Shown in pieces: positions 9,971 through 42,887 of a stretch of DNA of 64,000 nucleotides; the stretch's first letter is position 1, and every line of letters begins with the position of its first letter. The stretch comes from a virus (taxonomy: Duplodnaviria; Heunggongvirae; Uroviricota; Caudoviricetes). The translations under genes and the position numbers were made by a program. The DNA lies in IMG/VR virus record IMGVR_UViG_3300045996_004585, positions 1,334 to 65,333 of that record; one strand, written 5' to 3'. The notes beneath the pieces were generated by a model, which did not search any database, was not told the DNA's origin, and saw nothing but the letters and a program-made list of their open reading frames with translations.

Positions 9971-10168
9971 ATGAGTAAGATGGAAAAGCTCAAGTATCCT
10001 CCGTGCAATGTCAACCCCATGACTGAACAGCCGTACACTCGGCACAAGTGGGTAATTGTACCTGAGGCCAAGGCTATTACCAAGCGCACCAGAAAGGGCA
10101 CCCTTGCTTTCTACAAGGTTGCATGCTCCCGTTGCGGCATTAATGACCCACGACCCCCGGCCTATTAG
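9971..10168 (+). CDS. small zinc-ribbon-like protein
   Basis: PPCN ... CSRCG cysteine pairs. Confidence 0.35.
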   Translation: MSKMEKLKYPPCNVNPMTEQPYTRHKWVIVPEAKAITKRTRKGTLAFYKVACSRCGINDPRPPAY

Positions 10169-18545: not shown

Positions 18546-20938
18546 TGGCCACTGAGACTCTACTACCTGACGCGTTACTAGAAAATTCTGGTTGGGGAAG
18601 CATAGCCTTTGCAGATATTGACGAAGACCCTGATTCCCCAGATGGCAACTGGGCTGTAGCCAGTAGTAATAACAACGCGACTATTGCTAGAGTTAGCTTC
18701 CCTACGCCCACAGGCAACCCTGTGGGAATTCAGACTTTCAAGATGTATGTCAGGCAGTTCTCTGGCACACAGTCAGGCACTCCGCAAGCCCGTATTGATC
18801 TATATGAAAACGGCAGTTTGCTTGCTAGTGGAACAGATCAGGATGTAACGAGTACCACTGGTCAGATGCTTAGCCAAGATTTTGATTTGACTGGAATCAC
18901 ATTGGCTGATCCCACTGGGGCTAGCATTGAAGCTAGATTTGTAGGAACACAGAGTGGTGGTTCTCCTGGTGCCCGTAACAGCACTGATCTTGGTGCCATC
19001 AATTGGGACATCGTTACCTACGGGCTGAACAGCGATGTAGCATTTGCTGTATATGCTACAGGCAGTGCGACAGATTCAGATACAAGAGATTGTCGTGTTG
19101 AAGGAGCTTCTCCATCATCAGAGCCACAGGTGTCATGGCTACAGATCACTATTCCTGAAGCTACATCAGTTTTACAGTCATCCGACACCAGAGATGTGCG
19201 TGTTACGGGTAAGGCCGACTCTGACACAGCGCGTGATGCGCGAGTCACAGGTTTTGCGCATGCTACGTCATTCGATAGCTTTACGCGCACTAGAGCGCTG
19301 GGAGATGGCTGGGGAGCTACAACCTCGGGCCACGTTTGGACTCACCACTCCAACCTTTCAATCCCGGACTCGTCTAAGTTCGGCGTCAATGGCTCAGCAG
19401 GTTACATGCAGCTTAGCGCTGCGAATACCTCCGTTCATGCAAACTTGCGCGAGAACGACGCCACATTAACCGATGTTGATGTTCTCATCAAGGGTAAACT
19501 AGGCACAACGCCAACAGGCACAAGAGTAGAGCATTACGTCATCGCTCGTATGAAGGATGACGATGAGTACTACGCTCTAAGGCTCTACCACAACGTAGGT
19601 GATACTTCAACGCTGAGACTCACGAAGCGCAACGTCACAACAACTGATTTCGGATCAAGCGTCAGCATTGGAACCCTAGTACCTGAAGCTTGGTATTGGT
19701 TCAGGTTCCGAGTTGTTGGCACAACACTTGAGGGTAAGGTTTGGGCAGACGGATCGGGCGAGCCGTCAAGCTGGCAGGTTACAGCAACAGATAGTGATTT
19801 TGCTTCTGGTGGTGTAGGAGTCCGAGGATTTGCCCCGACAGGCAACACTAATCTGCCGACACTTGAGTGGGATGACTTACAGGTTAAGCTTCCTGTTCTT
19901 GCCGAGCGCGATGTACGCACGAGAGGTACACTAGACTCAAGCGACACCAGAGATGTGCGTGTTCGGGGTACTGTCGATAGTGACACCACTCGTGATGTAA
20001 GAGTTCGCGGTACCGCCGATAGCGCTGAGGCACGTGATGCGAGGGTAACAGGTAAAGCTGATTCCACTGTAGACCGAGATGTTCGGGTTACAGGTAAAGC
20101 CGACAGCGATACGACTAGAGATGCTCGCGTAAGGGGTCAGGCTGACAGTGATACTGCCCGTGACACACGAGTCACAGGACAAGCAACAGCAACTGAAGAT
20201 CGCAATGTTCGTGTTACAGGCCAAGCCGACTCTAGTGTTGACAGGGATGTTCGCACAACAGGAGCAGCAGGCGCTACAGCCTCTGAGAGGGCACAGGACG
20301 CCCGTGTAAGGGGTCAGGCGGACTCTGACACCACTCGTGACGTGCGCGCCCGTGGTGAGCTTACAACGGCTGAGAGCCGTGATGTTAGGGTTCGTGGTCA
20401 GGCAGACTCTTCGCGCACTCAGGATGTACGTATTACGGGTGCAGCCGACTCATCAACAACTCGTGACGCACGCGCCACAGGTAAGGCTGACTCGTCTCTT
20501 GCTCAGGATGTTCGCACATTCGGTCATAGCGCATCCTCAACTGATGTAGCAGTAAGAGTCACCGGAGTCATGCAGGTAATCAGGCCAACGTCTGATATCA
20601 CCGCAGGAGCCTGGGGAGTTGCGCCGCTGTACCAGAAGTTAGATGAAGTAACGCCAGACGATGGAGACTACGTTTCTACTACTTCGTCCTCAACAATGGA
20701 AGTCAGGTACGCAATCCCGGCCTCTCCTGAGCCAGGGTCAAGCTACGTTCGTTATAGACTAAGGAAGAGCGACAATGACGCAACGGTCGATTACACAGTC
20801 ACGTTGCTTGATGGGGCAACACAGATTGATCAATGGACGCACAATAACGTAGGAACCACATGGACGACTTATACGCAGACCGTAACGATTAGCAACTATG
20901 GCAACCTCCGTCTGCGCGTTCAGGCGGTGATAACCTAA
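18545..20938 (+). CDS. tail fibre protein with 14-aa tandem repeat array (797 aa)
   Basis: TAATG junction; at least 14 tandem copies of DS-x-x-x-RDVRVTG-x-A; shared module at both termini. Confidence 0.6.
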   Translation: MATETLLPDALLENSGWGSIAFADIDEDPDSPDGNWAVASSNNNATIARVSFPTPTGNPVGIQTFKMYVRQFSGTQSGTPQARIDLYENGSLLASGTDQDVTSTTGQMLSQDFDLTGITLADPTGASIEARFVGTQSGGSPGARNSTDLGAINWDIVTYGLNSDVAFAVYATGSATDSDTRDCRVEGASPSSEPQVSWLQITIPEATSVLQSSDTRDVRVTGKADSDTARDARVTGFAHATSFDSFTRTRALGDGWGATTSGHVWTHHSNLSIPDSSKFGVNGSAGYMQLSAANTSVHANLRENDATLTDVDVLIKGKLGTTPTGTRVEHYVIARMKDDDEYYALRLYHNVGDTSTLRLTKRNVTTTDFGSSVSIGTLVPEAWYWFRFRVVGTTLEGKVWADGSGEPSSWQVTATDSDFASGGVGVRGFAPTGNTNLPTLEWDDLQVKLPVLAERDVRTRGTLDSSDTRDVRVRGTVDSDTTRDVRVRGTADSAEARDARVTGKADSTVDRDVRVTGKADSDTTRDARVRGQADSDTARDTRVTGQATATEDRNVRVTGQADSSVDRDVRTTGAAGATASERAQDARVRGQADSDTTRDVRARGELTTAESRDVRVRGQADSSRTQDVRITGAADSSTTRDARATGKADSSLAQDVRTFGHSASSTDVAVRVTGVMQVIRPTSDITAGAWGVAPLYQKLDEVTPDDGDYVSTTSSSTMEVRYAIPASPEPGSSYVRYRLRKSDNDATVDYTVTLLDGATQIDQWTHNNVGTTWTTYTQTVTISNYGNLRLRVQAVIT
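19900..20560 (+). repeat. in-frame 42-nt tandem repeat array (14-aa unit DS-x-x-x-RDVRVTG-x-A)
   Basis: Recurring nt unit ~gac(a/t)cnnnnacncg(t/a)ga(t/c)gtncgngtnacnggn; it lies inside an ORF and is coding. Confidence 0.7.
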
Positions 20939-23430
20939 TGGGCGTTTTTGACATTCTGTCATTCCAGGGCAACGGCCTTGGGGCGAACTTGCCTACGAGA
21001 CTGGCTGCGTCTACAGGCACTCGTTACTACATCAGCCCGTCCGGCAACGACACCACAGGTGACGGCTCAAGCGGCACGCCTTGGCGCACACCTAAGAAGG
21101 CGCTCACCACTGTCGCCAACGGCTCGATCATCGAGATGGCTGCGGGCGACTACCCTTCACCCTACGCTGTAACCAAGGTTGCTGCATCGAACGCACCGAT
21201 CACATTCGTTCCTGCATCAGGATTGGCGCTTGGCGATGTGCGCTGGCTATGGTCATTTCGTCTCAACTCATCAGCGTATCTCCGATTCATCGGCATCGAA
21301 TTCTTCTTCGACAACGGCGTGCGCACGACGCTCGCCAACTCTGCCGCAATCGGCGCGACTACTGTAGACCTAGTAGATGCCAGTGCATTCCCGACTTCTA
21401 CAGCAGACGGCGCGCTAAACCCTGGTCAGAGACACTGCGGTGTCGGCAACACAGGGTTGACGGGCACAGAGGCCACTGAGAAAAACCACTTCACCTACAC
21501 CGGCAAGACAGGAAATACCCTAACTGGCGTAGCAGGATGGGCGAGCGGCACAGGCACCTTTAATGCTGGTTCAACGGTTGCCTATGGCGACGTAGGCGCA
21601 TACATCAACGGTGGCAGTAACATCGAGTTCCACTATTGCGACTTCCATCACGCCTCTGAGAGCAACATCTTCCCGGCAACCTCTGTAACTGATTTGCACT
21701 TCGTCAACTGTATCCTGCGTGACGCTGGAACACGCGAAGACCCGCGCCACCAGCGCGACCATGGAGCCTACTTTAACGGCGACAACAACCTGTTGCTGAA
21801 CTGCGTCATCCGCGATAATGACGCACACGCCTTCCAGCTTTATTCCAGTGGATCAGGCCGCTTGGTCATCAACTGCACCATCGATGGCAATGGCATCCAG
21901 CATGCAAGCAATCTAGCAGCTATGACTATCGCGGGCACAGCTTCTGCCGAGCGAATCATCAACTGTCTTGTCACTAACAACGGTGGCGTAGGATCAAACT
22001 CTACTGCGGGCACGGGCCACATCCTTAAGTACCCTCTCTTCTTCGGGAATGATGGTGCAGACCAGTCTGGTACCACGGGCATTACGTATACGGCGCACCC
22101 TGACAATAGTGAAGACCCACTGTATGTTAACCAACCTTCTAAGGACTTCTCACTTCAGTCTGGTAGCCCCGCCTTGGCTTCTGCCGATGGCGCATGGGCA
22201 CCACAGTTTGACTTCAATAACGATCTTCGTCCTGCGACTGCATCTGTAGGAGCATTCGAAAGTAGCGGTGGCACAACAGAGGCGCAGTTCTCTTGGACTG
22301 AGATTGAAGTTCCACTTGAGGGCGCTGGCACAGCTACAACTAGAGATGTCCGTGTTACTGGTACTGCTGACACTAATCGTACACAGGATGTTCGTGTAAC
22401 TGGATATCTCGACTCGTCAACTACACGAGACGTGCGAGCTAGAGGTTCTGCTGATTCGTCACGCGCACAGGACGTAAGAGCCACAGGACAGCAGACCACT
22501 ACAGAGAGTCGTGATGTGCGTGTTCGTGGTCAAGCCGACAGCACCACCAATCGTGACGTTCGTATTACTGGTGCAGCCGACAGTAATGCTACTCGTGACG
22601 TTAGGGTAACAGGCCAGCTTGGCTCTGAGCGCGCCCAGGACGTTAGAACAAGGGGCACGGCGACCAGCACTGTCGAGCGCGATGCTCGCGTGGTTGGTAC
22701 TGTCCCCGGCGAGGTAACTCACGCAGTTGATGCTCGTGTACGAGGTACTGCCACTTCTACAGACACTCGTGACGTTCGCGTATTCGCCAGCATTCCCGCA
22801 GATACAAGCAGAGATGTAAGAGCCAGAGGCCAAGCAGTCCTAGATGCTGTCCGCGACATTCGAATCGTTGCACAGGCAGACTCTACGATTGTCCGAGATG
22901 TGCGTCTACGAGGCCAACTATCGAGCGACACGTCGCGTGATGCGAGAACGACAGGTAAGGCCGACAGTTCGACTGAGACAAATGTTCGCGTCACAGGAAC
23001 CATCGCCACTAGTGTAGATTACGCCGCAAGAGTCACAGGTAAGGCTGACAGCGATACAACTCGTGACGTTTACGTTCGCGGTCAACTCGACAGCACGGTG
23101 CTACGCGACGTTCGTGTAACAGGCCAGGACGAAGCTGCTTGGGCGCAGGACGTTAGGACGCAAGGTCAAGCTGATCTTGCTCGTACTCAGGACGTTCGCG
23201 TCACAGGTTACCTCCCAGCCGCCTACGAGGTTGACGCTCGTGTCATAGGCGCAGAGGGCTACATCGACATCGCATTTGATGTGCGCGTAGCCGGTGGGAA
23301 CATTCCAGTGTGGGTTCGCCCAGGCCCATCTGAAACGAGAGTGGGTCACGGGCGAGGGGTATCCGGCATTGACAACACACTGTCAGAAGCTGGGATCGTC
23401 ACCAGTAGGGGTCAGTCAGAAACACTCTAG
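20938..23430 (+). CDS. tail spike/fibre with N-terminal pectate-lyase-like beta-helix and C-terminal repeat array (830 aa)
   Basis: TAATG junction; beta-helix coils (NCVIRDNDAHAF, INCTIDGNGIQHASN, INCLVTNNGGVGSN); then roughly 20 copies of the TRDVRVTG repeat. Confidence 0.6.
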   Translation: MGVFDILSFQGNGLGANLPTRLAASTGTRYYISPSGNDTTGDGSSGTPWRTPKKALTTVANGSIIEMAAGDYPSPYAVTKVAASNAPITFVPASGLALGDVRWLWSFRLNSSAYLRFIGIEFFFDNGVRTTLANSAAIGATTVDLVDASAFPTSTADGALNPGQRHCGVGNTGLTGTEATEKNHFTYTGKTGNTLTGVAGWASGTGTFNAGSTVAYGDVGAYINGGSNIEFHYCDFHHASESNIFPATSVTDLHFVNCILRDAGTREDPRHQRDHGAYFNGDNNLLLNCVIRDNDAHAFQLYSSGSGRLVINCTIDGNGIQHASNLAAMTIAGTASAERIINCLVTNNGGVGSNSTAGTGHILKYPLFFGNDGADQSGTTGITYTAHPDNSEDPLYVNQPSKDFSLQSGSPALASADGAWAPQFDFNNDLRPATASVGAFESSGGTTEAQFSWTEIEVPLEGAGTATTRDVRVTGTADTNRTQDVRVTGYLDSSTTRDVRARGSADSSRAQDVRATGQQTTTESRDVRVRGQADSTTNRDVRITGAADSNATRDVRVTGQLGSERAQDVRTRGTATSTVERDARVVGTVPGEVTHAVDARVRGTATSTDTRDVRVFASIPADTSRDVRARGQAVLDAVRDIRIVAQADSTIVRDVRLRGQLSSDTSRDARTTGKADSSTETNVRVTGTIATSVDYAARVTGKADSDTTRDVYVRGQLDSTVLRDVRVTGQDEAAWAQDVRTQGQADLARTQDVRVTGYLPAAYEVDARVIGAEGYIDIAFDVRVAGGNIPVWVRPGPSETRVGHGRGVSGIDNTLSEAGIVTSRGQSETL
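22320..23230 (+). repeat. in-frame 42-nt tandem repeat array (same 14-aa unit)
   Basis: The same degenerate unit as at 19900-20560, inside the 830-aa ORF. Confidence 0.7.
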
Positions 23431-23451: not shown

Positions 23452-23607
23452 ATGGAACGAAGCGACAGACTTGGCACTCGCTGTAAACCCAGCGACAAGA
23501 AGAAATGGAAAAAGGCGGCTAAAGCTGCTGGAATGTCACTGTCTGCGTGGATCGAACAGACCCTAAATGAGAAGAGTGATGATGCAAAGCACCCTAATAA
23601 CGTGTGA
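23452..23607 (+). CDS. small ribbon-helix-helix-like DNA-binding protein (51 aa)
   Basis: KKKWKKAAKAAGMSLSAWIEQTL resembles the basic strand plus helix of RHH/CopG-like proteins; read by eye. Confidence 0.3.
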   Translation: MERSDRLGTRCKPSDKKKWKKAAKAAGMSLSAWIEQTLNEKSDDAKHPNNV

Positions 23608-23755
23608 CCATTGCGAAGACGAAGAGAAGTTCAGAGAAGAAGACAATCCTTTCGAAGCAGGCTGGCTTTCTGTGTGGGAGTATGATACACTAGCAGAAGA
23701 GATTAGAACATTCGACTTCTGTTGCCGAGACTGCATTGCTGCCCACTTCACCTAA
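23567..23755 (+). CDS. small zinc-binding protein
   Basis: CDHC ... CCRDC. Confidence 0.35.
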   Translation: MRRVMMQSTLITCDHCEDEEKFREEDNPFEAGWLSVWEYDTLAEEIRTFDFCCRDCIAAHFT

Positions 23756-25250
23756 AGACCCCTTTGTACAATCCGTTGATAATCAGATCAACGCTGTTCA
23801 TGATCAGATCAACGCTGACTTGAACAATCGCGTCGTTTCTGATAAAGTAGTAGGAGCAACCCCTAGACGCAAGATCGGCACTCGTGTCACCAAGATGACG
23901 AGCAAGGGGGTTGAGCAGACGTGGGAAAAGGTCAGCACCAACAAGTGGAAACGGATTAGTTCAGAAGCACTTGACACGGACGGCGAGAAAGGATATACTA
24001 GTACTATGACCACAAAAAAGGAAGACATCAGCCTCATCCCGAACGCCGACGTTTACCTCGACCAGGGGTTCAACGTTCTGCTGATCGGGCTTCATGGTAC
24101 AGGCAAGACGGCCAGCATTCAGGCGCTTGCTCGTGATCGCGGGTTCAAGATGAAGTACTACTCTTGTTCCACGCTCGACCCGTTCACCGATCTTGTCGGT
24201 GTCCCTACTCCGCGAGACTACTGCCCGGAGTGCAAGCTTTACTTCAAGGATGAGTCGAAGTGCCCGGAGTGCCAGGGGCGCACGGTCGAGGCTCTCAAGA
24301 TGGTTCGTCCTCGTGAGGTTGACGAGGCCGAGATTATCTTCCTTGACGAGTTCAACCGCGCCGATGGCAAGACGCAGAACGCTCTCTTTGAGATGATCCA
24401 GTTCGGCACGATCAACGGCGAGCCGCTCCCCAATCTCAAGGCATGCTGGGCAGCGATCAACCCGCCCGATGACGAGCAGAACTATCAGGTCGATGCCATC
24501 GACCCGGCGATGATGGATCGTTTCGATGTCTACATCGACATCACCCCGAAGCCGTCCGTCACGTACATGACCAAGCACATGCCTGAGCCGATTGCGCTCT
24601 CGCTGAAGCTCTGGTGGGACGATCATCAGAACGCGATTCGCTTGGGCAGCAAGGACGCACACTCGGACTACATCTCTCCGCGTCGTCTTGAGAAGATCGG
24701 TCTGGTGTGGTGCGCCACGAAGTCGCCCAAGAGCGTGTTCGCTGCTCTGCCGCGCGGTGGCCAGTTCGAAAAGAACAAGCTGGTCGATCATCTCAAGGCT
24801 GCTCAGAAGCAGGTTAACCAGGAGCAGGGTATTGTCGATCCGTCTCTGGACGATGGCCCTGACCTGGGAGGCAACGGCCTGGGTGACCGCCCGTCGCCAC
24901 TGTTCACCTACCGCAAGGCGAACATCCGCATGGACGCCGAGAAGCTCGCAGACCACCTGGCAGCTAACCCCAACGAGTTCGAAACGCACAAGAAGGTTGC
25001 GGACGAGCTTAAGTCGGGTGCAGGCGGACAGGACTTGGTTCTGCACTACGGCGCTGTCATCAACGCCCTAAACCCCTCGACGCTTGAGGGTATGGTTGCG
25101 GGCTTCCCGCCGCCGAAGGTGAAGCTGATGCGCGAGGGCTTCATGACGATGTACCAGGACACGCCGGACGAGGCCAAGAAGCTGACTCACCTGCACAAGG
25201 TGCTGACAGCCACGCCGGGTGCCCCCACGGGTTGGCCCGCTAAGCTCTAA
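23736..25250 (+). CDS. MoxR/CbbQ-type AAA+ ATPase with inserted zinc ribbon
   Basis: Walker A GLHGTGKT; Walker B/sensor IIFLDEFNRA (the DE(I/F)NRA MoxR signature); CPECKLYFKDESKCPECQG insert between the Walker motifs. Confidence 0.8.
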   Translation: MLPTSPKDPFVQSVDNQINAVHDQINADLNNRVVSDKVVGATPRRKIGTRVTKMTSKGVEQTWEKVSTNKWKRISSEALDTDGEKGYTSTMTTKKEDISLIPNADVYLDQGFNVLLIGLHGTGKTASIQALARDRGFKMKYYSCSTLDPFTDLVGVPTPRDYCPECKLYFKDESKCPECQGRTVEALKMVRPREVDEAEIIFLDEFNRADGKTQNALFEMIQFGTINGEPLPNLKACWAAINPPDDEQNYQVDAIDPAMMDRFDVYIDITPKPSVTYMTKHMPEPIALSLKLWWDDHQNAIRLGSKDAHSDYISPRRLEKIGLVWCATKSPKSVFAALPRGGQFEKNKLVDHLKAAQKQVNQEQGIVDPSLDDGPDLGGNGLGDRPSPLFTYRKANIRMDAEKLADHLAANPNEFETHKKVADELKSGAGGQDLVLHYGAVINALNPSTLEGMVAGFPPPKVKLMREGFMTMYQDTPDEAKKLTHLHKVLTATPGAPTGWPAKL

Positions 25251-25260
25251 GCGGCGCAAT

Positions 25261-25284
25261 GGGGAGGGGCGAAAGCCCCTCCCC
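25261..25284 (+). terminator. GC-rich hairpin with GAAA tetraloop
   Basis: ggggaggggc-GAAA-gcccctcccc, a perfect 10-bp stem, 11 nt after the MoxR stop; no U-tract follows. Confidence 0.45.
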
Positions 25285-25287
25285 GCC

Positions 25288-25316
25288 TTGACATCCCTGA
25301 CCAGATAGGATATACT
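25288..25316 (+). promoter_or_regulatory. sigma70-consensus promoter
   Basis: TTGACA, 17-nt spacer, TATACT. The -10 ends 6 nt before the ATG at 25323, which implies a leaderless or very short-leader transcript. Confidence 0.55.
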
Positions 25317-25322
25317 GTTCTT

Positions 25323-27077
25323 ATGGCCCCAAAGACTTCTCACGTTGACGACAAGATGAACACGAAGCAGCTTGCTAGGCATTACAGCGCTGCTATCGAG
25401 TATCTTGACGATCACTACGCCTACTTCCTCACGCACGTTCTGCACATCGGGCGACCGATGTGGGACGAGGCGGTTCAGACCGCCTGTGTTGCGATGCAGG
25501 AGGCCGAGAACAGCAAGGACGGCAGCAAGTGGGATTTCGATTTCATGTTCGCGCCGCGCTTCGCTTCTCAGCTTACGACTAAGGATATGGCGTTCGTGCT
25601 GGCGCACGAGGCATTCCACATCGTTCTCAACCACCTGAAGCTGGTCGAGAACTTCATTGATCGCAAGCGCCTCAAGAAGCTTGCTGAGATGGTCAGCAAC
25701 CGTGAGCGCCTGACGAAGGATGAAATCAAGGAACTGCTTGAGAACAAGCAGGCCGCAGCCAAGTTCAACATTGCCGCTGACGCGGTGATCAACGACTACC
25801 TCGTCAACAACGGCTTCTCGCCGCTTGAGGTTGACGGCGAGGTTATCGGCATTTACGGCCAGGATGTCATCGGTCAGAACGCCGCGTACCTCACGGTCAC
25901 CGATGTCTACGATATGCTCCCGGAGCAGAAGCAGGATCAGGGCGAGTGCAGCACGTGTGGTGGCACTGGCCAGAAGCCTGAGGACAAGCCCGAGGACGAG
26001 AAGAAGGACGAGGGCGACAAGGGCGAGGGAGACGAGAAGGGTGACGAGGGCGAGGGCCAGGATGATGGCGACTCTGAGGGCGAGGGCGAGGGCGACTCCG
26101 AGCAGGAGGGCGAGAACGCTAAGGGTGGCGCTGGCAAGGCCCACGGCGAAGATGGCAAGGGCGAGCCGTGCCCGGACTGCAAGGGTTCCGGCAAAGGCCA
26201 GGGTATGGGTTCTGGCATCCCTGGCGATCCTGGCGACGGACGTGGCGGCAACGCCATCGACAACCATGACTGGATGCTCGATCCCGACTGGGCTGAGAAG
26301 ATGGCTGAGGCTATCGACAAGCTCAACGACGACATCGACAAGCAGGGCAAGCTGCCCCAGGACGTGCGCGACAAGATGCAGGAAGAGGCCAACGGAGAGA
26401 CGGACGCACAAAAGGCTCTCGCCAACTCCATGCGCGCAGGATCAGAAGAGGGCAACATCCGCGAGTTCCAGGAGAAGCACGGCCTGAGCATGGCCTGGGC
26501 GAAGCTGCTCAAGGAAGTTGACCCGATGATCTTCAAGGAGCCGGGTGTCGGCCCGCCGCCGCGCGCAGAGTGGCATAAGCGCCCGCGCAAGCTGGGAGCG
26601 TTCCGCGATGTCAACCTGCCTGTCTACGGCACGTCACGTCACCAGGAGAAGCGCAGCAAGGAGAAGAAGAGCATCGTCCTTGCGCTGGACTACTCTGGTT
26701 CGTGTGGCCCTGAGGATGCAGACAAGTTCGCTTCGCTCGCTAAGAGCATTCCGCAAGAGCGCATCAAGGTTCTGGCCTGCACCTTCACCACCACGTGGAA
26801 GAAGCACGACATCGAGAATCCGCTTGGTGGCGGCAACGGCGGCACAGACTTCAACGCTATCGCTGACTTCATTGAGAAGGAGGTTCGCCCGGAGCTTAAC
26901 GGTCAGTACCCCACGGCAGTCGTCGTCATCACTGACGGTCAGGCGAGCTTCACCAATGCGCCCCAGGGCAAGGAGGCCGAGGCGTGGCTGTGGCTGCTCT
27001 CGCCGGATCGCACGCACGGGTATCCTGCCTCTAAGAACATCGGCCGCTGGGCGATGCTAGATGAATACACCCTCTGA
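25323..27077 (+). CDS. VWA-domain protein with N-terminal HExxH putative metallopeptidase domain (MoxR partner, DUF2201-like)
   Basis: N-domain AHEAFHIVLNH (HExxH); about 100-aa D/E/G/K low-complexity linker; C-terminal VWA with MIDAS motif LALDYSGSCG ... VVITDGQ. Confidence 0.75.
   Translation: MAPKTSHVDDKMNTKQLARHYSAAIEYLDDHYAYFLTHVLHIGRPMWDEAVQTACVAMQEAENSKDGSKWDFDFMFAPRFASQLTTKDMAFVLAHEAFHIVLNHLKLVENFIDRKRLKKLAEMVSNRERLTKDEIKELLENKQAAAKFNIAADAVINDYLVNNGFSPLEVDGEVIGIYGQDVIGQNAAYLTVTDVYDMLPEQKQDQGECSTCGGTGQKPEDKPEDEKKDEGDKGEGDEKGDEGEGQDDGDSEGEGEGDSEQEGENAKGGAGKAHGEDGKGEPCPDCKGSGKGQGMGSGIPGDPGDGRGGNAIDNHDWMLDPDWAEKMAEAIDKLNDDIDKQGKLPQDVRDKMQEEANGETDAQKALANSMRAGSEEGNIREFQEKHGLSMAWAKLLKEVDPMIFKEPGVGPPPRAEWHKRPRKLGAFRDVNLPVYGTSRHQEKRSKEKKSIVLALDYSGSCGPEDADKFASLAKSIPQERIKVLACTFTTTWKKHDIENPLGGGNGGTDFNAIADFIEKEVRPELNGQYPTAVVVITDGQASFTNAPQGKEAEAWLWLLSPDRTHGYPASKNIGRWAMLDEYTL
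25975..26125 (+). repeat. low-complexity GAGGGCGA-rich coding repeat (acidic linker)
   Basis: Iterated gagggcga / gacgag units encoding DEKKDEGDKGEGDEKGDEGEGQDDGDSEGEGEGDSEQEGE. Confidence 0.6.
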
Positions 27078-27285
27078 AGAAGATACGTTGGCCCACTTTG
27101 AAGCATGGTGGGCACAGCTTGTTAGGCAGCACCGTGACAGTGACGTACCTAGCGAGTGGTGGTATGTTGCAGGGTACTGGCATGGGGTGCGTCGTAGCCC
27201 AAGAGAATATGGCAATTTTGCCGACGCGGAGCGTACCAAGTATTGGCACATGGGTTACGATGATGCGGAAGGTGACCTAAGTTGA
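27061..27285 (+). CDS. GY-motif small protein family member
   Basis: WWYVAGYWHGVRRSPREY ... YWHMGYDDAEGDLS. Confidence 0.5.
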   Translation: MNTPSEEDTLAHFEAWWAQLVRQHRDSDVPSEWWYVAGYWHGVRRSPREYGNFADAERTKYWHMGYDDAEGDLS

Positions 27286-27503
27286 CTGCTTTTCTGCCAG
27301 GAACGCAAGAGCAAATTGAGCAATACGGTGAAGCATGGTGGCTAGTAGCCTCAACAATGTCCCCTGATCGCTGGTACCTGGGCGGCTATTACTCACGTAT
27401 GCGAGGCGACAGCAACGAACAGCATCTAGGGGATGATGACGAGGCCGTACAGTTCTGGCTTGAAGGTTGGAACGACGCGCATTGGGATTTGACCTATGGA
27501 TGA
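27282..27503 (+). CDS. GY-motif small protein family member
   Basis: RWYLGGYYSRMRGDSNEQ ... FWLEGWNDAHWDL. Confidence 0.5.
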   Translation: MTAFLPGTQEQIEQYGEAWWLVASTMSPDRWYLGGYYSRMRGDSNEQHLGDDDEAVQFWLEGWNDAHWDLTYG

Positions 27504-27708
27504 GTGGATGAGATTAAGAATCAAACAGGAGTGGGAGATGCGCTGGGCGGAACAGATGCAACCTCGCTCAGGTCAAGATTGGTATATAGGAGGGTATCTG
27601 TCGAAGCTGCGTGATTCGCCCCGTAGTACAGGCTTGAGAGGCACAGAAAAGGAATGGTGGCTTATGGGTTATGACGATGCAACCGGAGATATAGAGAGAA
27701 GATCATGA
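27496..27708 (+). CDS. GY-motif small protein family member
   Basis: DWYIGGYLSKLRDSPRS ... WWLMGYDDATGDIERRS. Confidence 0.5.
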   Translation: MDEWMRLRIKQEWEMRWAEQMQPRSGQDWYIGGYLSKLRDSPRSTGLRGTEKEWWLMGYDDATGDIERRS

Positions 27709-27878
27709 AACCTAATTCGAAATGCAAGCACAAAATCCTTCGACGTACACGTCTCGTAGAGTCACGTACTGATTATGATGCCGAGTGGCGCTATCAATGT
27801 GAAGAGTGCAAAGAAGAGCATACTATGACATACTGGCTCATTGCCTTGCAGCGGCCCGTAAAGTCTGATATAATTTAG
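27705..27878 (+). CDS. small zinc-ribbon protein (57 aa, below ORF-track cutoff)
   Basis: ATGA overlap with the previous gene; CKHK ... CEEC. Confidence 0.3.
   Translation: MKPNSKCKHKILRRTRLVESRTDYDAEWRYQCEECKEEHTMTYWLIALQRPVKSDII
27846..27874 (+). promoter_or_regulatory. sigma70-like promoter with extended -10
   Basis: TTGCAG, 17 nt, TGaTATAAT. The -10 ends 6 nt upstream of the ATG at 27881. It overlaps the 3' end of the small upstream ORF. Confidence 0.5.
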
Positions 27879-27880
27879 GT

Positions 27881-28357
27881 ATGCAGCTAACTCTTGAACA
27901 GCAGCTTCTCCTAGCGCCCCAGGTGGCCGCTAGAGCGCACGCGCATCAGAAGCGCAAGGATGGAACGCCGTATATCGCGCATCCCGTTAGGGTGGCTCTG
28001 AGGGTCACCAAGAACACACAGTCGGGCAGCCCTTGGCAGATGACGTGTCAGATCGGCGCATTTCTACATGACGTGGTTGAGGATACCGATGTCACACTTG
28101 ACGATCTTCGTGAGCTTGGCTTTTCTGAGGGTGTGCTGGCGGTAATCGACCGTGTAACCAAGCGCCCCGGCGAGAAGTACAAGGACTTCATTCTTCGCAT
28201 CAAGGGCGACGGTCTGAGCGAAACCTCACTCTACGCCATCGCGGTGAAGCTGGCTGACATCGATGACAATGTTGAAGACCAGTCGGCCCTCGATCCCGAG
28301 GAAGCTGAGTTCCTTCGTGAGCGATACGAAAGGGCGCGTGAGGTTCTTGAAGCTTAA
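27881..28357 (+). CDS. small alarmone hydrolase, (p)ppGpp hydrolase HD domain (SpoT/Mesh1-like)
   Basis: AHQKRKDGTPYIAHPVRVA ... GAFLHDVVEDTD matches the RelA/SpoT HD hydrolase core; 158 aa single-domain protein. Confidence 0.75.
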   Translation: MQLTLEQQLLLAPQVAARAHAHQKRKDGTPYIAHPVRVALRVTKNTQSGSPWQMTCQIGAFLHDVVEDTDVTLDDLRELGFSEGVLAVIDRVTKRPGEKYKDFILRIKGDGLSETSLYAIAVKLADIDDNVEDQSALDPEEAEFLRERYERAREVLEA

Positions 28358-29427: not shown

Positions 29428-29445
29428 TGCTATACTTAGTCTATG
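29428..29445 (+). promoter_or_regulatory. extended -10 promoter element inside conserved motif TGnTATACTTAGTCTATG
   Basis: TGcTATACT ends 6 nt before the ATG at 29443. An identical 15-nt core recurs at 40031. Confidence 0.45.
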
Positions 29446-33864: not shown

Positions 33865-33995
33865 AAGGACGCAATGTTTAGTTTACTTGCACATCAAGCT
33901 GACGCAGCTATGACTTGGCCTGATGTTGTTCTGATACTGGGCCTACCTATCTGTTTCGGCCTTGTCCTCTTCGTCATAGGAAAATGGTGGTAGGG

Positions 33996-34024
33996 TTGAC
34001 AAAACTCGTGACATCTGGTACATT
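33996..34024 (+). promoter_or_regulatory. sigma70-like promoter upstream of pnuC
   Basis: TTGACA, 17 nt, TGgTACATT. Transcription would start about 60 nt before the RBS AAGGGAGAG / ATG at 34089. Confidence 0.4.
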
Positions 34025-34088
34025 AATTAGTGAAGAGGTTAGGGTTCCTGATCGCCTAACCAAAAACAAAACAACAAGGGAGAGTACC

Positions 34089-34808
34089 ATGTTCGACAAG
34101 TTAGAAGGACTGTTCCACAGTGTGAAGTTCAACGTTGTGGTTGCAGCGCTGTTCGCGGTATTCGCATTCGTCGGATATCAGATGGGCGGACTAGAGTTTC
34201 TCACTGAGTGGGCTGGCGGCGTAGCTGCTGCTATCGGTATTGCCTGCTTGGTCTTCAAGACGCAGGGCTACTGGGCGTGGAGTATTGTCAACGCGATCCT
34301 GTGGTTCTACATGTTCTGGTATCAGTGGGACTTGCCGATGCTCGCTGGCCTACAGATCATGTACATTCTGTTCAGTCTCTACGGGTTGACAGTATGGGCA
34401 ACGACACATAACCGCATCGGCTATAGCGCAGAGAAGATCAAGGACAACATCGGCACGGTGTTGGGCCTTGGCATCCTGGCGTATGCAGTGTACGCTTTCC
34501 GAGGCTTGGAGGGCTACGCATTCACTGGTTGGTGGTGGGTGGAGTTCAGCGGAGTGCTGATCAGCATCGTAGCATTCTGGATGGACGCATTCAAGTACCG
34601 CACCAACTGGTTGGGATGGACAGCGACCAACTTCCTGTTCTTCCCGCTCTTCGTACACAACACGGGCACGTACTTCAACGGGCCTGCACTCTTGACTATC
34701 CTCTTCCAGACATTGTGCTTCTTCGGAATCTACAAGTGGTGGAAGGATCAGAAGGAAGCTGTCGAGAGCGGAGAAGTGGAACTAGTTGGTGGCGCACAGT
34801 ATGCATAA
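34089..34808 (+). CDS. pnuC: PnuC-like nicotinamide riboside transporter
   Basis: About 239 aa with 7-8 predicted TMs. Trp-rich helices (AWSIVNAILWFYMFWYQWD, FTGWWWVEF) are typical of PnuC. The internal ATG with a strong RBS is chosen over the ORF-track start because the promoter lies inside the longer ORF. Confidence 0.5.
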   Translation: MFDKLEGLFHSVKFNVVVAALFAVFAFVGYQMGGLEFLTEWAGGVAAAIGIACLVFKTQGYWAWSIVNAILWFYMFWYQWDLPMLAGLQIMYILFSLYGLTVWATTHNRIGYSAEKIKDNIGTVLGLGILAYAVYAFRGLEGYAFTGWWWVEFSGVLISIVAFWMDAFKYRTNWLGWTATNFLFFPLFVHNTGTYFNGPALLTILFQTLCFFGIYKWWKDQKEAVESGEVELVGGAQYA

Positions 34809-37285: not shown

Positions 37286-37464
37286 TCGATAAGCTCTACG
37301 ATGTTTATTGGACGGATACCAGGAACAACAATGAGCGTTGTTCTGAGAAAGGTGGCCTTACGCGCGAGGAAGCAGAACGGATGATCGCTGAATGGGCGCG
37401 TGAGGCACCATTCTTTGTAGATTGCGTTATCCTACCCCACAATTCTAAGGAAGAACATGCGTAG
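37282..37464 (+). CDS. hypothetical protein
   Basis: ATGA junction. Confidence 0.3.
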   Translation: MIDKLYDVYWTDTRNNNERCSEKGGLTREEAERMIAEWAREAPFFVDCVILPHNSKEEHA

Positions 37465-38467
37465 AGGACTCGTAGTAGGTAAGTTCATGCCCCTGCACCG
37501 TGGGCATCAATTGCTCATCGAGACGGCTCTAGCGCGCTCTGATGAGCTTACAGTGGTAGTGTACGACTCTGAGGTTCCCGAGCGCTGGGCGAACGAGATG
37601 ATGCCTGTCGAGAAGAGGGCGCGTTGGGTTGCCGAGCTTTACCCTGGCATCCACAACATCGTGACGCAAGAGGATACACTTGGTGGCACGCACGAAGACC
37701 ATGACCACCCCAAGTATGCGCAGCATTACGCCGATCAGCTAGCGTACCTTGGCCCATTCACTCACGTGTTCAGCAGCGAAGAGTACGGTAAGCCGTTCGC
37801 TGAAGCTCTGGGCGCAGAACATGTGATGGTGGATGCTGCTCGTGAGCTTGTGCCGATGAGCGGCACCAAGTTCCGACAGAGCATGTACGAAAATCGTGCC
37901 TATGTCGATCCTCTCGTTTACCGTGATCTAGTACAAAAGGTGGTCTTCGTGGGCACTGAGAGTACTGGGAAGTCAACTCTCGCCAAGGCAATGGCCGAAG
38001 AGCTAAAAACACTGTACACTGAAGAGTACGGACGCTCTCTGTGGATTGAGCGTGACGAGCAAGGTGTGAAGCCCAGCTTCCATGACTTGCTCCACGTGGG
38101 TCAGACGCAGTACATGCAGGAGCAGGCGGCGCAGCTTCACGCCAATCGCTTCCTGTTCTGCGACACCAATGCATGGACGACCATGCTATGGAGCGAGATG
38201 TACTATGGCGCTGCGGATACACGGCTAATCGAGTTGGCTCGTCAAACCATAGGTGAGTACAAGTGGTTCCTCTGCTCTAACGATTTCGATTGGGTGCAAG
38301 ATGGCTACAGAGAACTGAAGGGCGACAAGTCCAAGAACTTCCAGAGGGTCAACGAAGCTACGTTGCAGCACTGGGGTATCGACTACCACATTCTGTCTGG
38401 CCCTGTTGAGCAGCGCATTCAACAGGTGAAGGACGACCTAGGCATTACGATAGGAGCATACGCATGA
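37457..38467 (+). CDS. nadR: NadR-like bifunctional NMN adenylyltransferase / ribosylnicotinamide kinase (no HTH domain)
   Basis: N-terminal GLVVGKFMPLHRGHQ (GxFxPxHxGH nucleotidyltransferase motif); second domain P-loop VFVGTESTGKSTLAKAMA; 336 aa. Confidence 0.7.
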   Translation: MRRGLVVGKFMPLHRGHQLLIETALARSDELTVVVYDSEVPERWANEMMPVEKRARWVAELYPGIHNIVTQEDTLGGTHEDHDHPKYAQHYADQLAYLGPFTHVFSSEEYGKPFAEALGAEHVMVDAARELVPMSGTKFRQSMYENRAYVDPLVYRDLVQKVVFVGTESTGKSTLAKAMAEELKTLYTEEYGRSLWIERDEQGVKPSFHDLLHVGQTQYMQEQAAQLHANRFLFCDTNAWTTMLWSEMYYGAADTRLIELARQTIGEYKWFLCSNDFDWVQDGYRELKGDKSKNFQRVNEATLQHWGIDYHILSGPVEQRIQQVKDDLGITIGAYA

Positions 38468-40030: not shown

Positions 40031-40048
40031 TGATATACTTAGTCTATG
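40031..40048 (+). promoter_or_regulatory. extended -10 promoter element, second copy of TGnTATACTTAGTCTATG
   Basis: TGaTATACT followed by the conserved TAGTCTATG. Lies upstream of 40046 (an alternative RBS-led ATG is at 40070). Confidence 0.45.
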
Positions 40049-42617: not shown

Positions 42618-42887
42618 ATGAGCGGCAGCATCGTGTTTGTCCTGGTCGAACTAGATGACGGCGTGCAGGAGTTTTTCGAAACTGCTTACGATGGCTTCAA
42701 GTTTGCGAAGGAAGCAGAGCAGCGACGTAGGGGCAGTGTTGAGTACGTGGCTGTGGGCGAATTCTACGAATCAGAAGGATCAATCTATGCTGGCCAAGAG
42801 CTAAGGCACCTGCTTAGGTCGCTCGACAACGTACATGGATGGCTTAAGGCGCAGCATGAAGCAGAGACACATGAAGAGACAGATTAG
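42618..42887 (+). CDS. hypothetical protein
   Basis: RBS-like GGATTGAGGG upstream. Confidence 0.4.
   Translation: MSGSIVFVLVELDDGVQEFFETAYDGFKFAKEAEQRRRGSVEYVAVGEFYESEGSIYAGQELRHLLRSLDNVHGWLKAQHEAETHEETD

Follow-up and report, generated by a model that had tools for sequence, protein, structure and literature searches.

The window, that is, the whole 64-kb stretch of phage DNA analysed here, carries on its plus strand two neighbouring genes, A and B (Table 1). The long form of ORF A comprises an N-terminal extension, a MoxR-type AAA+ ATPase and a family-specific C-terminal helical domain, with Walker A (GLHGTGKT) at residues 117–124 and Walker B/sensor (FLDEFNRA) at residues 202–209, and a 504-aa protein identical to it (P0102) is encoded on an 88.8-kb JGI contig. 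Pfam searches scored ORF A at 31.4 bits for AAA_5 (cutoff 22), 32.7 bits for AAA and 25.3 bits for AAA_3, the MoxR-proper model, the last being slightly under its cutoff of 27. The AF2 model (pLDDT 90.2) contains the helix-2 insert and the short hairpin before sensor 1, and its best Foldseek matches were NorQ, CbbQ and the CHU_0153 protein 2R44; the NorQ hexamer and the NorQ–NorD VWA complexes matched with E = 1e-9 and TMt 0.64–0.66, with CbbQ2 and 2R44 also on top. The A family profile had its best PDB match to 2R44 (E = 8e-5), a putative ATPase from Cytophaga hutchinsonii that we take to be a MoxR-family structure. ORF A is a AAA+ ATPase of the MoxR (helix-2-insert) clade, as the preliminary description had proposed, and neither the AAA_5 score nor the structural matches place it outside that clade. 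The N-terminal extension is modelled as a helix (residues 9–30), a small beta domain (about 50–74) and a disordered linker (80–91), with block-mean pLDDT of about 84–93 at residues 31–70 and below 50 at 80–91. It is optional in the family: relatives carry a homologous extension, one homologue (L087) has none, and at another locus (L088) it is apparently a separate 103-aa ORF, to which the similarity is weak and confined to the N-terminal helix.

Table 1. Features of the A–B locus (positions in the window)
Feature	Position	Strand	Remarks
Two small ORFs upstream of the pair	23452..23755	+	ORF list, synteny; module membership uncertain
ORF A, long form	23736..25250	+	504 aa from TTG; ORF list
N-terminal extension of A (aa 1–90)	23736..24005	+	AF2 model; relatives
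Internal sigma-70-type promoter TTGACA-17-TATACT in ORF A	23971..23999	+	kept in relatives
ORF A, short form	24006..25250	+	414 aa, starts MTTKKEDISLIPNA; AAA+ core alone
Zn ribbon CPECKLYFKDESKCPECQG (aa 163–181)	24222..24278	+	predicted tip of the helix-2-insert beta-hairpin (AF2 model)
GC-rich hairpin with GAAA loop	25261..25284	+	between A and B; GGGGAGGGGC-GAAA-GCCCCTCCCC
B promoter TTGACA-17-TATACT, then 6 nt, then ATG	25288..25316	+	same geometry in relatives
ORF B	25323..27077	+	584 aa
HEAFHIVLNH (H95, E96, H99, H104)	25605..25634	+	putative zinc site and catalytic Glu
Two DnaJ-type CxxCxGxG motifs and acidic Gly/Asp/Glu/Lys loop	25929..26192	+	ORF B translation
VWA domain (aa ~449–584)	26667..27077	+	MIDAS D456-x-S458-x-S460, T508, D538

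A zinc-ribbon insert had been noted between the Walker motifs of A. The insert is real, and it is missing from canonical MoxR structures and from many members of the family. A gap of 74 residues separates the 'DLVG' motif of A from Walker B, and in the AF2 model the hairpin strands (156–163, 168–170 and 184–190) lie between helices 149–154 and 193–197 and directly precede the Walker B strand (200–204), the zinc ribbon being predicted to sit at the hairpin tip. Among 120 homologues of A, 19 had a CxxC…CxxC insert, 37 C/H variants of it, 10 a 3-Cys form and 53 a short basal insert, and in the alignment the zinc ribbon was absent from the phiRSL1, BCSR5 and LR756511 homologues. Judged from these alignments, the zinc-ribbon insert of A is clade-specific.

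Perfect TTGACA-N17-TATACT promoters occur exactly twice in the 64 kb, at 23971 and 25288, and these are also the only 11/12 sigma-70-type sites on either strand, one lying upstream of the short form of A and the other upstream of B. The B promoter and the GAAA hairpin before it had been described previously and both were located, while the internal promoter and the start at 24006 had been overlooked. The in-frame ATG at 24006 lies 6 nt past the internal −10 element, and the arrangement TTGACA-17-TATA[AC]T-(6–7 nt)-ATG is kept in all six nearest relatives, with the hexamers falling in two different codon phases; L087 retains both promoter and ATG despite the loss of the N-domain. A Met at this position is present in the aligned long forms, the short-form genes P0103 and P0130 start just upstream, and the phiRSL1 and BCSR5 homologues begin at the equivalent point. 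The TATAMT-N6-ATG class was observed 6 times against 0.44 expected, and all five plus-strand matches end on ORF start codons. Conservation of the internal promoter in six of six relatives and in two codon phases therefore argues for a short A isoform on a leaderless-type mRNA. Two forms of A are probably made, a long one with the small N-terminal domain and a short one from ATG 24006, the latter probably from a leaderless-type transcript. The B promoter likewise keeps its geometry (−10, 6–7 nt, ATG) in 6/6 relatives, and conservation thus extends to both promoters. The hairpin between the genes resembles a terminator, although this copy lacks a U-run, and the 81-nt stretch containing it folds at −32.4 kcal/mol (z = −3.25). 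A GC-rich hairpin of differing sequence lies between the A stop and the B −10 element in all six nearest-clade loci (three were computed and the other three read from the sequence). Since B has its own promoter behind the hairpin, the A:B ratio could be set independently.

ORF B contains, in order, a zincin-like DUF2201_N domain, an acidic loop bracketed by Zn knuckles, a helical middle domain, a basic conserved segment and a VWA domain with a MIDAS, and the motifs AHEAFHIVLNH, DYSGS and TDG lie at residues 94–104, 456–460 and 537–539. DUF2201_N matched with 47.0 bits (Pfam cutoff 23.2), and the profile search upheld the earlier assignment of this N-domain joined to a VWA domain with an intact MIDAS. 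H95, H99 and H104 were invariant, and E96 kept in at least 90%, among 24 diverse B sequences. The HExxHxxxxH motif was found in 99 of 102 B homologues and DxSxS in all 102. The catalytic Glu is lost from the phiRSL1 (HMCQH) and BCSR5 (HLVTH) homologues, and proteolysis is therefore not a family-wide activity. Profile hints toward zincin peptidases were weak (M48 in Pfam, E = 0.13; MJ1213 in the PDB, E = 0.1). Two CxxCxGxG motifs, CSTCGGTG and CPDCKGSG, flank an acidic stretch of 77 aa with 28 D/E, 21 G and 9 K/R, in a loop whose DNA is built of imperfect 6/12/18/24-nt tandem repeats (25974–26114). B homologues carry either none of these motifs or at least two, never one (72 versus 30 of 102), and the match of ORF B to DnaJ_CXXCXGXG in Pfam was weak (E = 0.12). 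The paired zinc motifs were absent from the preliminary description, which had reported an acidic linker of about 100 aa. Its disorder was borne out, as the region of roughly 100 aa holding the acidic stretch (residues ~205–303) has pLDDT mostly below 50, but the acidic stretch itself is shorter than claimed.

The A–B pair is a known phage module, corresponding to N4 gp24–gp25 and AR9 g028–g029 and already described for jumbo phages (PMC7824862), and not the new one that had been implied. At least 597 records of sequenced phages contain partner B, relatives of ATPase A are encoded on 223 IMG/VR contigs, and homologous pairs are spread over phages of Gram-negative and Gram-positive hosts. Linkage of the two genes is tight: B stood beside the ATPase in 83 of the 85 loci examined, mostly immediately downstream on the same strand. 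In N4 and its Schitoviridae orthologues, gp24 (AAA ATPase) and gp25 (vWFA protein), whose function is listed as 'unknown', form the same two-gene module of a MoxR-like ATPase followed by a protein with HExxH and VWA/MIDAS. In hhalign, gp24 matched the A family with 95.9% probability (E = 6e-9), and gp25 matched the B family over almost the full length with 98.9% probability (E = 2e-17); identity was about 23–27% over the aligned stretches. However, at 352 and 380 aa the two N4 proteins fall short of A and B in length; gp24 is aligned from near its residue 20, and so lacks the long N-terminal extension, and shows gaps across the Zn-ribbon segment, and in gp25 nothing aligns with the CxxCxGxG motifs or with the greater part of the acidic loop.

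AR9 g028–g029 share the architecture and gene order of A–B (tblastn identity 28% over the AAA core), the AR9 record annotates PF09967 and PF13203, and the PBS1 partner is a full-length structural match to B (E = 4.5e-14). The AR9 pair was the only homologue for which expression data were found, and it is early with a peak at 20 min: g028 has a mapped early TSS and reached 88, 464 and 378 FPKM at 5, 20 and 40 min, g029 reached 77, 595 and 465 FPKM, and AR9 virion genes stood at about 0–3 FPKM at 5 min. Its promoter is of the virion-RNAP early type, whereas those of A–B are of the sigma-70 type. AR9 is a distant homologue (about 28% identical) with a different RNA polymerase system, and sigma-70-like promoters alone do not fix timing. 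Iyer, Anantharaman, Krishnan, Burroughs and Aravind (2021) described a group 2.2 jumbo-phage MoxR–vWA pair with an N-terminal metallopeptidase, called a 'chaperone–cochaperone pair' (examples ASV44729.1 and ASV44728.2), and proposed for it a role in virion assembly and proteolytic processing (PMC7824862). A MoxR–vWA pair with a fused metallopeptidase is exactly the architecture of A–B, and Atu_ph07 was among the tblastn matches of the family; the part of that paper dealing with the jumbo-phage pair makes no mention of a Zn ribbon, Zn knuckles or an internal promoter.

Directly upstream of the pair lie two small ORFs, one ribbon-helix-helix-like with 51 aa (23452–23607) and one Cys-rich with 62 aa and a CxxC…CxxC pattern (23567–23755), which are syntenic with a NikA-like ORF of 52 aa (weak Pfam mark) and a 55–59-aa ORF at loci L004–L006 and L087. 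Neither matched a PHROG, and both are possible regulators. They also stand between the pair and the large upstream ORFs, and the placement directly after tail-fibre genes is not supported: Beta_helix was the only Pfam match of the large ORFs, which matched no tail-fibre family or phage. The pair's neighbours in the window are HD_4, ligase, PnuC and NMNAT, and the region is a nucleotide/NAD-metabolism arm.

The partners NorD and CbbO resemble B in layout, a linker joining the N-terminal domain to a C-terminal VWA/MIDAS domain, but they lack the HExxH domain, and the roles of NorQ–NorD and CbbQ–CbbO are metal insertion or Rubisco reactivation; sequence identity to A–B is 15–20%. NorQ chains have about 255 residues, against 414–504 for A, and the NorQ account drawn on here reports neither a Zn ribbon nor an N-terminal extension. 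In NorQD, a finger of the VWA domain inserts into the pore, where it touches the H2-insert loops, and the linker joining the VWA and N-terminal domains is twisted and stretched by the ATPase, a mechanism that the authors propose to be general for AAA+/VWA pairs (PMC13036017). The helix-2-insert hairpin that grips the finger there is the one that in A carries the Zn-ribbon tip. By analogy with NorQ–NorD, CbbQ–CbbO and Midasin, A would form a hexameric ring serving as the docking platform for B's VWA domain, and part of B would extend into the pore to meet the helix-2-insert hairpins, each Zn-ribbon-tipped in this clade. The MIDAS metal site of B would capture an acidic side chain of the target, though the acidic loop of B itself may occupy the site instead, as an autoinhibitory pseudo-ligand. 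ATP hydrolysis would then twist and stretch the long linker of B, in which the acidic loop, clamped by the Zn knuckles, is combined with the helical middle domain, and this movement would position or unmask the N-terminal HExxH domain, after which the captured protein could be cleaved.

The catalytic, MIDAS and ATPase motifs of the pair are intact. Because the AR9 pair is early and the promoters found here are host-type, we favour a cytoplasmic remodelling and protease machine over a virion-assembly chaperone. The odds are roughly even (probability about 0.5) that A–B is a remodelling machine of the MoxR–VWA type incorporating a zinc peptidase, expressed from host-type promoters in early-to-mid infection and working in the cytoplasm on a protein target. 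We infer that A and B form a complex, that B acts as a peptidase, and that such timing and such a target apply in this phage.

An alternative is that large fibre or spike proteins are folded or put together with the help of the pair and processed by its peptidase, as proposed by analogy with Acidianus two-tailed virus (ATV) p618/p892 (PMC7824862) and, as virion or fibre maturation, in the preliminary description. In the literature covered, p618 (MoxR) and p892 (VWA) are the only viral MoxR–VWA pair described with a chaperone role, namely in extracellular tail development (PMC7824862), but they come from an archaeal virus and lack a peptidase domain, and the structural similarity between ATV ORF892 and B is weak (E = 1e-5, low TM-score). 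In every nearest-clade locus the genes before the pair encode large, variable proteins with Beta_helix or Laminin_G (Laminin_G_3), which would fit fibre maturation, and the PA5oct MoxR-like ATPase is flagged as detected by ESI-MS/MS in virion preparations, which would fit a particle-associated role; however, the 93 MS-detected PA5oct products include 'virion-unrelated enzymes', and the partner gp144 was not flagged. Against assembly, g028/g029 of AR9 differ from virion genes in being early and having an early promoter, and A–B is driven by the strongest host-type promoters of the window. The N4 and Axy10 pairs are surrounded by nucleotide-metabolism genes; neighbours in these phages and AR9 are dCTP deaminase, gyrase and DNA-binding proteins, and in the window the surroundings of the pair revealed neither hallmark structural genes nor tail-fibre families. 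Timing and context point away from a late structural role, and we consider an assembly function unlikely.

Quite doubtful is a metal-insertion chaperone comparable to NorQD, CoxDE, CobST and BchID, which would supply a metalloenzyme of phage or host with a metal ion, the three-His site of DUF2201_N and the Zn knuckles handling metal instead of forming a protease. The closest solved structures are indeed the NorQ/NorD metal-insertion system and CbbQ, the invariant H95, H99 and H104 persist in phiRSL1 and BCSR5, which have lost the catalytic Glu, both A and B have extra Cys/His metal sites, and the pair lies amid nucleotide-metabolism enzymes. However, retention of this Glu in 99 of 102 close homologues and in 66 of 69 IMG/VR pairs argues for catalysis, the weak profile hints are toward zincin peptidases, and no metalloenzyme gene accompanies the pair regularly in N4, AR9, phiRSL1 and this clade alike.

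A narrower form of the remodelling–peptidase reading takes the machine to be a protease of counter-defence, as the preliminary description had also suggested, or of host takeover, which would cleave a host immune or housekeeping protein early in infection; it is improbable to a similar degree. Early expression of the AR9 pair and the host-type promoters of A–B agree with it, as do neighbouring genes, namely HD_4, which is alarmone-hydrolase-like, and the NAD-salvage genes PnuC and NMNAT, kinds of genes associated with counter-defence or takeover, and a conserved host target would fit the broad spread across phages of both host groups; but PADLOC gave no match for the pair, and one homologous pair lies in a cellular genome with no called phage-like neighbour. 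The module therefore also has a role outside viruses. The copy described here extends this known phage module by zinc-binding inserts and by a conserved promoter within the ATPase gene.

The A–B pair, in which the partner gene begins 72 nt downstream of a MoxR-type AAA+ ATPase gene, represents a phage module that is very common and was described before, rather than a new kind of system, and the main new observation on it is a promoter inside ORF A, which predicts a second isoform of the leaderless type. Three features are specific to its clade: a zinc ribbon on the helix-2 insert (H2 insert) of A, a zinc-knuckle-bracketed acidic loop in B and the conserved promoter within the A reading frame. 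Megablast matched the locus to none of 50,697 phage records; this phage has no close sequenced relative. A relative of A is encoded on 223 IMG/VR contigs, and the partner was present in 83 of the 85 loci examined, nearly always immediately downstream of the ATPase. When a Schitoviridae partner protein was used as query, 597 phage records were matched, among them PA5oct, Atu_ph07, coliphages of ~350 kb and Pseudomonas, Escherichia, Vibrio and Klebsiella phages of about 66–78 kb, with 'HNH endonuclease' and 'metallopeptidase domain protein' as frequent labels. A and B, adjacent on the same strand, match the two families of the N4-type module, phrog_1297 and phrog_1314, and gp24 and gp25 of coliphage N4 form the same module: hhalign gave 95.9% for the A family against gp24 and 98.9% (E = 2e-17) for the B family against gp25, the latter over nearly the full length and with the HExxH, DxSGS, GGT and TD motifs aligned. 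In a 2009 paper, gp24 and gp25 appear under 'AAA' and 'vWFA' with their function given as unknown (PMC2784036), and Iyer et al. propose a virion-assembly role, taking Acidianus two-tailed virus as the parallel (PMC7824862). Together, the spread of the pair and these earlier descriptions show that its architecture was already known. Assignment to a known anti-phage defence system was rejected, since no PADLOC family matches A or B at E ≤ 0.01. A homologous pair in reversed order, B then A, lies beside a two-component system at 10001–12569 of L090, a cellular 1.1-Mb ENA contig, with no phage-like Pfam family among the called neighbours of that pair.

Features of the A–B locus, with coordinates in the window unless given in amino acids (aa) or by locus
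Feature	Position	Strand	Details
830-aa Beta_helix protein	20938–23430	+	
RHH/NikA-like small ORF	23452–23607	+	51 aa, upstream of A
Cys-rich small ORF	23567–23755	+	62 aa, CDHC…CCRDC, directly upstream of A
ORF A	23736–25250	+	504 aa from TTG
Promoter inside ORF A	23971–23999	+	TTGACA-17-TATACT
(TGn)TATA[AC]T-N6-ATG site	23994–24008	+	ATG 24006, predicted short form of A
Promoter of B	25288–25316	+	TTGACA-17-TATACT
(TGn)TATA[AC]T-N6-ATG site	25311–25325	+	ATG 25323, B
ORF B	25323–27077	+	584 aa
B N-terminal helical domain	aa 14–200		well ordered, carries HEAFHIVLNH (model)
B acidic loop	between the two CxxCxGxG motifs		disordered, most of aa 230–275 with pLDDT below 50 (model)
B helical middle domain	aa 316–399		model
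B conserved basic segment			…PPPRAEWHKRPRKL…; WHKRPRKL at aa ~417–424
B compact VWA domain	aa 449–584		model
(TGn)TATA[AC]T-N6-ATG site	27869–27883	+	ATG 27881, HD_4 gene; extended -10
HD_4-type phosphohydrolase	27881–28357		
(TGn)TATA[AC]T-N6-ATG site	29431–29445	+	ATG 29443, DNA ligase; extended -10
PnuC-like NMN transporter	33984–34808		
NMNAT	37457–38467		
(TGn)TATA[AC]T-N6-ATG site	40034–40048	+	ATG 40046, ORF; extended -10
3504-aa ORF	42835–53349	+	HNH motif aa 516–556
ATPases of the ~74-aa H2-insert clade	ORFs starting near 5920–6000		L036, L047, L061, L064, L065, L069, L076

Both ORFs of the preliminary description exist, on the plus strand, and every motif that it quoted was recovered in its place. 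ORF A exceeded the Pfam cutoffs for AAA (32.7 bits) and AAA_5 (31.4 bits, cutoff 22) and scored 25.3 bits against the MoxR-proper family AAA_3 (PF07726), under the gathering score of 27; a precomputed PF07726 annotation is present on close homologues. PHROGs assigned A to phrog_1297 ('ATPase', 3e-20). Across 120 ATPase homologues there is no variation at Walker A residues G121, G123 and K124, at Walker B residues D204 and E205, or at N242, R262, R316 and R317; T125 is invariant among 23 homologues and at least 90% conserved among the 120. By position, N242, R262 and R316/R317 were assigned the putative roles of sensor 1, Arg finger and sensor 2. In an AlphaFold2 model built on the 120 homologues (mean pLDDT 90.2), helices 149–154 and 193–197 flank a beta-hairpin (strands 156–163, 168–170 and 184–190) that directly precedes the Walker B strand 200–204. 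The MoxR clade is defined by a beta-hairpin that interrupts helix 2 in the stretch separating Walker A from Walker B (PMC7159879), and the modelled hairpin of A is this helix-2 insert. Foldseek ranked the NorQ hexamer and NorQ–NorD VWA complexes as the best PDB matches of the model (E about 1e-9, TMt 0.64–0.66), followed by CbbQ2, the CHU_0153 protein 2R44 and carboxysomal cso-CbbQ, with MCM, dynein and clamp loaders below. Searches of A and B singly against PDB with phmmer yielded nothing useful, so profiles were needed for this comparison, and the top PDB sequence match of the A family profile was again 2R44 (E = 8e-5), which we take to be a MoxR-family structure. A therefore belongs to the wider, helix-2-insert MoxR clade and not to 'MoxR proper', fitting AAA_5 by profile and NorQ/CbbQ structurally; the original MoxR-clade reading holds in this sense, with AAA_5 over cutoff, NorQ, CbbQ and 2R44 nearest and the helix-2 insert modelled.

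The insert between the Walker motifs that had been noticed in the sequence is real and can now be described more exactly. Its CPEC…CPEC motif (aa 163–179) maps to the tip of the modelled H2-insert hairpin, which identifies it as a zinc-ribbon elaboration of the helix-2 insert. A literature search found no relevant published account of a zinc ribbon in a MoxR helix-2 insert, and a search on COG3864 likewise returned nothing relevant. Among 69 distinct IMG/VR pairs, the stretch from 'DLVG' to Walker B falls into three length classes: a basal class of about 23–31 aa, a second of 44–52 aa with Cys/His ligands and a third, in another clade, with an unrelated insert of about 74 aa. With an unrelated insert at the same position, the site is a recurrent insertion hot-spot. 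Across the 120 closest ATPases, the insert was short in 53, of mixed C/H type in 37, of CxxC…CxxC type in 19 and of three-Cys type in 10.

For B, two Pfam families had been named. The first, DUF2201_N (PF13203), was found well over its cutoff (47.0 against 23.2 bits, aa 74–263), with HEAFH and a third His at 104; the VWA-like family DUF2201 (PF09967) stayed below its gathering score (20.8 against 26.4 bits). The MIDAS is intact, as had been claimed: none of 102 partners departs from D456-x-S458-x-S460 or G507-T508, and variation at T537-D538-G539 is slight, D538 being conserved in at least 90% of them. PHROGs placed B in phrog_1314 over its full length (7e-31), and the AlphaFold2 model had a mean pLDDT of 81.8. 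In a set of 24 diverse members, H95, H99 and H104 never vary and at least 90% carry E96; 99 of 102 close homologues retain HExxHxxxxH, and all 102 retain DxSxS. Zincin-type profile matches were weak (MJ1213 PDB entries, E = 0.1; M48, E = 0.13). From the motif we infer a putative peptidase activity of B. A rival is that the three-His site has a metal-handling, non-proteolytic role: in the phiRSL1 (HMCQH) and BCSR5 (HLVTH) partners the catalytic Glu is replaced and the three His are kept, and this keeps the rival alive. The 'HNH endonuclease' label given to B-type proteins by PHROGs and RefSeq is a misnomer, since they have no HNH Pfam match and carry DUF2201_N and VWA domains instead. The label is attached to AR9 gp029 (NC_031039), N4 gp25 (NC_008720), Axy10 gp32 (NC_054971), PA5oct gp144 and phrog_1314, and is a propagated misannotation of DUF2201_N–VWA phage proteins, wide in RefSeq and PHROGs.

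Two exact DnaJ-type CxxCxGxG motifs, CSTCGGTG and CPDCKGSG, flank the acidic loop of B at aa ~203 and ~283; the preliminary description missed them. Among 102 B homologues, 72 have no such motif, 30 have at least two and none has one, a pattern consistent with one putative zinc clamp that holds a variable loop closed. The Pfam DnaJ_CXXCXGXG match was weak (E = 0.12), and the blocks holding the two motifs were modelled with mixed confidence (mean pLDDT 64 and 79). The loop comprises 77 aa, with 28 D/E, 21 G and 9 K/R, and an equally acidic one occurs in just 2 of the 102 homologues, that of the window included. Its DNA consists of imperfect 6/12/18/24-nt repeats, so the loop probably expands and contracts by slippage. 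Directly 3' of B, at 27061–27708 (+), lie three overlapping tandem paralogous small ORFs (70–74 aa, 33–34% identical) with the common motif W…WY.GGY…W..G.DDA.

The perfect TTGACA-17-TATACT sequence occurs in exactly two copies in the 64-kb window, and these are its sole 11/12 sigma-70-type sites on both strands. One is the consensus promoter ahead of B, correctly described before; the other lies inside ORF A. At both, an ATG (24006 in A, 25323 in B) stands 6 nt past the -10, a spacing that has the geometry of leaderless mRNAs. TATAMT-N6-ATG was observed 6 times in the window against 0.44 expected, a number reached in 0 of 100 shuffles, and all five plus-strand matches end exactly on ORF start codons. 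At three of these (27881, 29443 and 40046), an extended -10 (TGn) replaces the consensus -35. This class of sites suggests that the phage makes several leaderless mRNAs. In the six loci of the nearest clade (the window, L004, L005, L006, L007 and L087), TTGACA-17-TATA[AC]T-(6–7 nt)-ATG, in frame, precedes the ATPase core without exception. The hexamers are read in different codon phases across these loci, the -35 as CTT-GAC-A (Leu-Asp) or TTG-ACA (Leu-Thr) and the -10 as GGA-TAT-ACT or GAT-ATA-CT, which argues that the internal promoter is conserved at the DNA level. Between A and B, all six share a layout of stop codon, GC-rich hairpin, -10 (with -35 or TGn), 6–7 nt and ATG; the hairpin sequences differ among the loci, and that of the window is stable (z = −3.25) and lacks a U-run. 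At L004 ~9700, L007 ~7575 and L087 ~6325, the 6–7 nt that separate the -10 from the ATG of B are AGGAG(T/C/AC). This Shine-Dalgarno-like sequence is too near that ATG but could serve a second in-frame ATG that follows within a few codons; the start codon of B may thus differ between read-through transcripts and those initiated at the promoter.

Because the promoter sits in it, the whole N-terminal extension of A was first suspected to be non-coding. This was rejected, as the extension is homologous among relatives and is predicted to fold, with a block-mean pLDDT of about 84–93 over residues 31–70, into a helix and a small beta domain, which a disordered linker (aa 80–91) joins to the core in the AlphaFold2 model; the DNA encoding this linker region contains the promoter. 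In L087 the extension has been lost, and the promoter and ATG are kept. The extension also holds a 21-nt tandem duplication (23775–23817) encoding the repeated peptide …QINAVHDQINA…. The simplest reading of ORF A, and a plausible one, is that it would give two products, a long form of 504 aa and a short form of 414 aa. In length the short form is comparable to the ATPases of phiRSL1 and BCSR5 (419 and 477 aa), whose AAA domain begins at residue ~19.

Direct expression data for a homologue of the pair were found for AR9 only. There, the primary 5' end mapped for g028 lies behind an early-promoter consensus (Table S2), and FPKM values at 5, 20 and 40 min were 88, 464 and 378 for g028 and 77, 595 and 465 for g029, a profile like that of gyrase and DnaB; the virion genes stood at about 0–3 FPKM at 5 min and had climbed into the hundreds or thousands at 40 min (Table S4). 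In N4, Axy10 and AR9 the neighbours of the pair are nucleotide-metabolism genes. The AR9 timing, the near-consensus host-type promoters and the nucleotide-metabolism and auxiliary-gene neighbours together point to early-to-middle expression of the pair. PA5oct points the other way: its MoxR-like ATPase (hhalign 96%) is annotated as detected by ESI-MS/MS in virion preparations. However, the 93 products detected in the PA5oct paper include 'virion-unrelated enzymes', and the partner is unflagged.

The preliminary description had also placed the pair after tail-fibre genes. PHROGs, Pfam and tblastn found no tail-fibre family and no sequenced-phage match for the three large upstream ORFs (1197, 797 and 830 aa) and returned just Beta_helix, among these only in the 830-aa protein, and also in a 315-aa protein further upstream; the associated idea of fibre maturation is weakly supported at best. 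Close relatives carry variable large Beta_helix or Laminin_G_3 proteins at these positions, followed by two small ORFs (RHH/NikA-like and Cys-rich), the pair, HD_4 and ligase, and a receptor-binding role of the large proteins is plausible. The two small ORFs, which also occupy the same upstream positions in L004–L006 and L087, could be regulators of the module. The 830-aa protein ends (aa ~470–790) in a ~13-aa repeat, …RDVRVTGxxDSxxx…, which is present in about 25 degenerate copies and was undetected in the DNA by TRF. No capsid, portal, terminase or tail gene was recognisable among the window ORFs scanned, which encode thymidylate synthase, thymidine kinase, a dehydrogenase, an HD_4-type phosphohydrolase, an ATP-dependent ligase, PnuC, NMNAT, a metallophosphoesterase, a CCA-adding enzyme and a 3504-aa ORF with an HNH motif. 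PnuC, NMNAT and HD_4 make up an NAD-salvage, possibly alarmone-hydrolase, set that recurs beside the pair in relatives. The N-terminal ~130 aa of the 3504-aa ORF alone resemble a phiCbK-like Caulobacter phage protein (45–48% identity), and apart from this stretch and the HNH motif no family match was found. A permuted 'tmRNA*' called by ARAGORN at 49541–49965 (−) lies inside this ORF, has no Rfam match and is probably a false positive; Rfam gave nothing at gathering threshold in the whole window.

In the NorQ–NorD structures reported in 2026, the ring carries the VWA domain on top, and a finger reaches into the pore, where it touches the H2-insert loops; generality is proposed there for AAA+/VWA pairs, including CbbQO and Midasin (PMC13036017). 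B has the NorD-like layout of N-domain, linker and C-terminal VWA, and on this likeness we propose that A would form a hexamer (A6) that engages B through the VWA side, with the pore contact formed by the zinc-ribbon-tipped H2 inserts. The MIDAS of B might bind either an acidic target residue or the acidic loop of B itself, and ATP hydrolysis by A6 would work on the linker of B, so that the zincin domain is positioned or unmasked for cleavage. Complex formation between A and B and engagement of a target are thus suggested by analogy. The two-product reading of A extends this proposal: the embedded host-type promoter would give a leaderless mRNA for the short AAA+ core, read-through transcripts would give long A with its extra N-terminal domain, and mixed or alternative hexamers with zinc-ribbon-tipped pore loops might act as a switch that sets the target of the VWA–peptidase partner, or whether its role is an early or a late one. 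We regard this reading as tentative, with roughly one chance in four of being right; if true, it would be a regulatory design undescribed for any MoxR system.

Found in N4, N4-like phages, several jumbo-phage lineages and hundreds of metagenomic phages, the pair is one of the more widespread among phage gene pairs of unassigned function. Handles on that function are offered by the zinc ribbon, placed on the part of the pore that in NorQD takes hold of the VWA partner, by the early AR9 homologue and by the internal promoter predicting two isoforms in one clade, and the genes are approachable in tractable phages, such as N4 (gp24/gp25) and AR9 (g028/g029).
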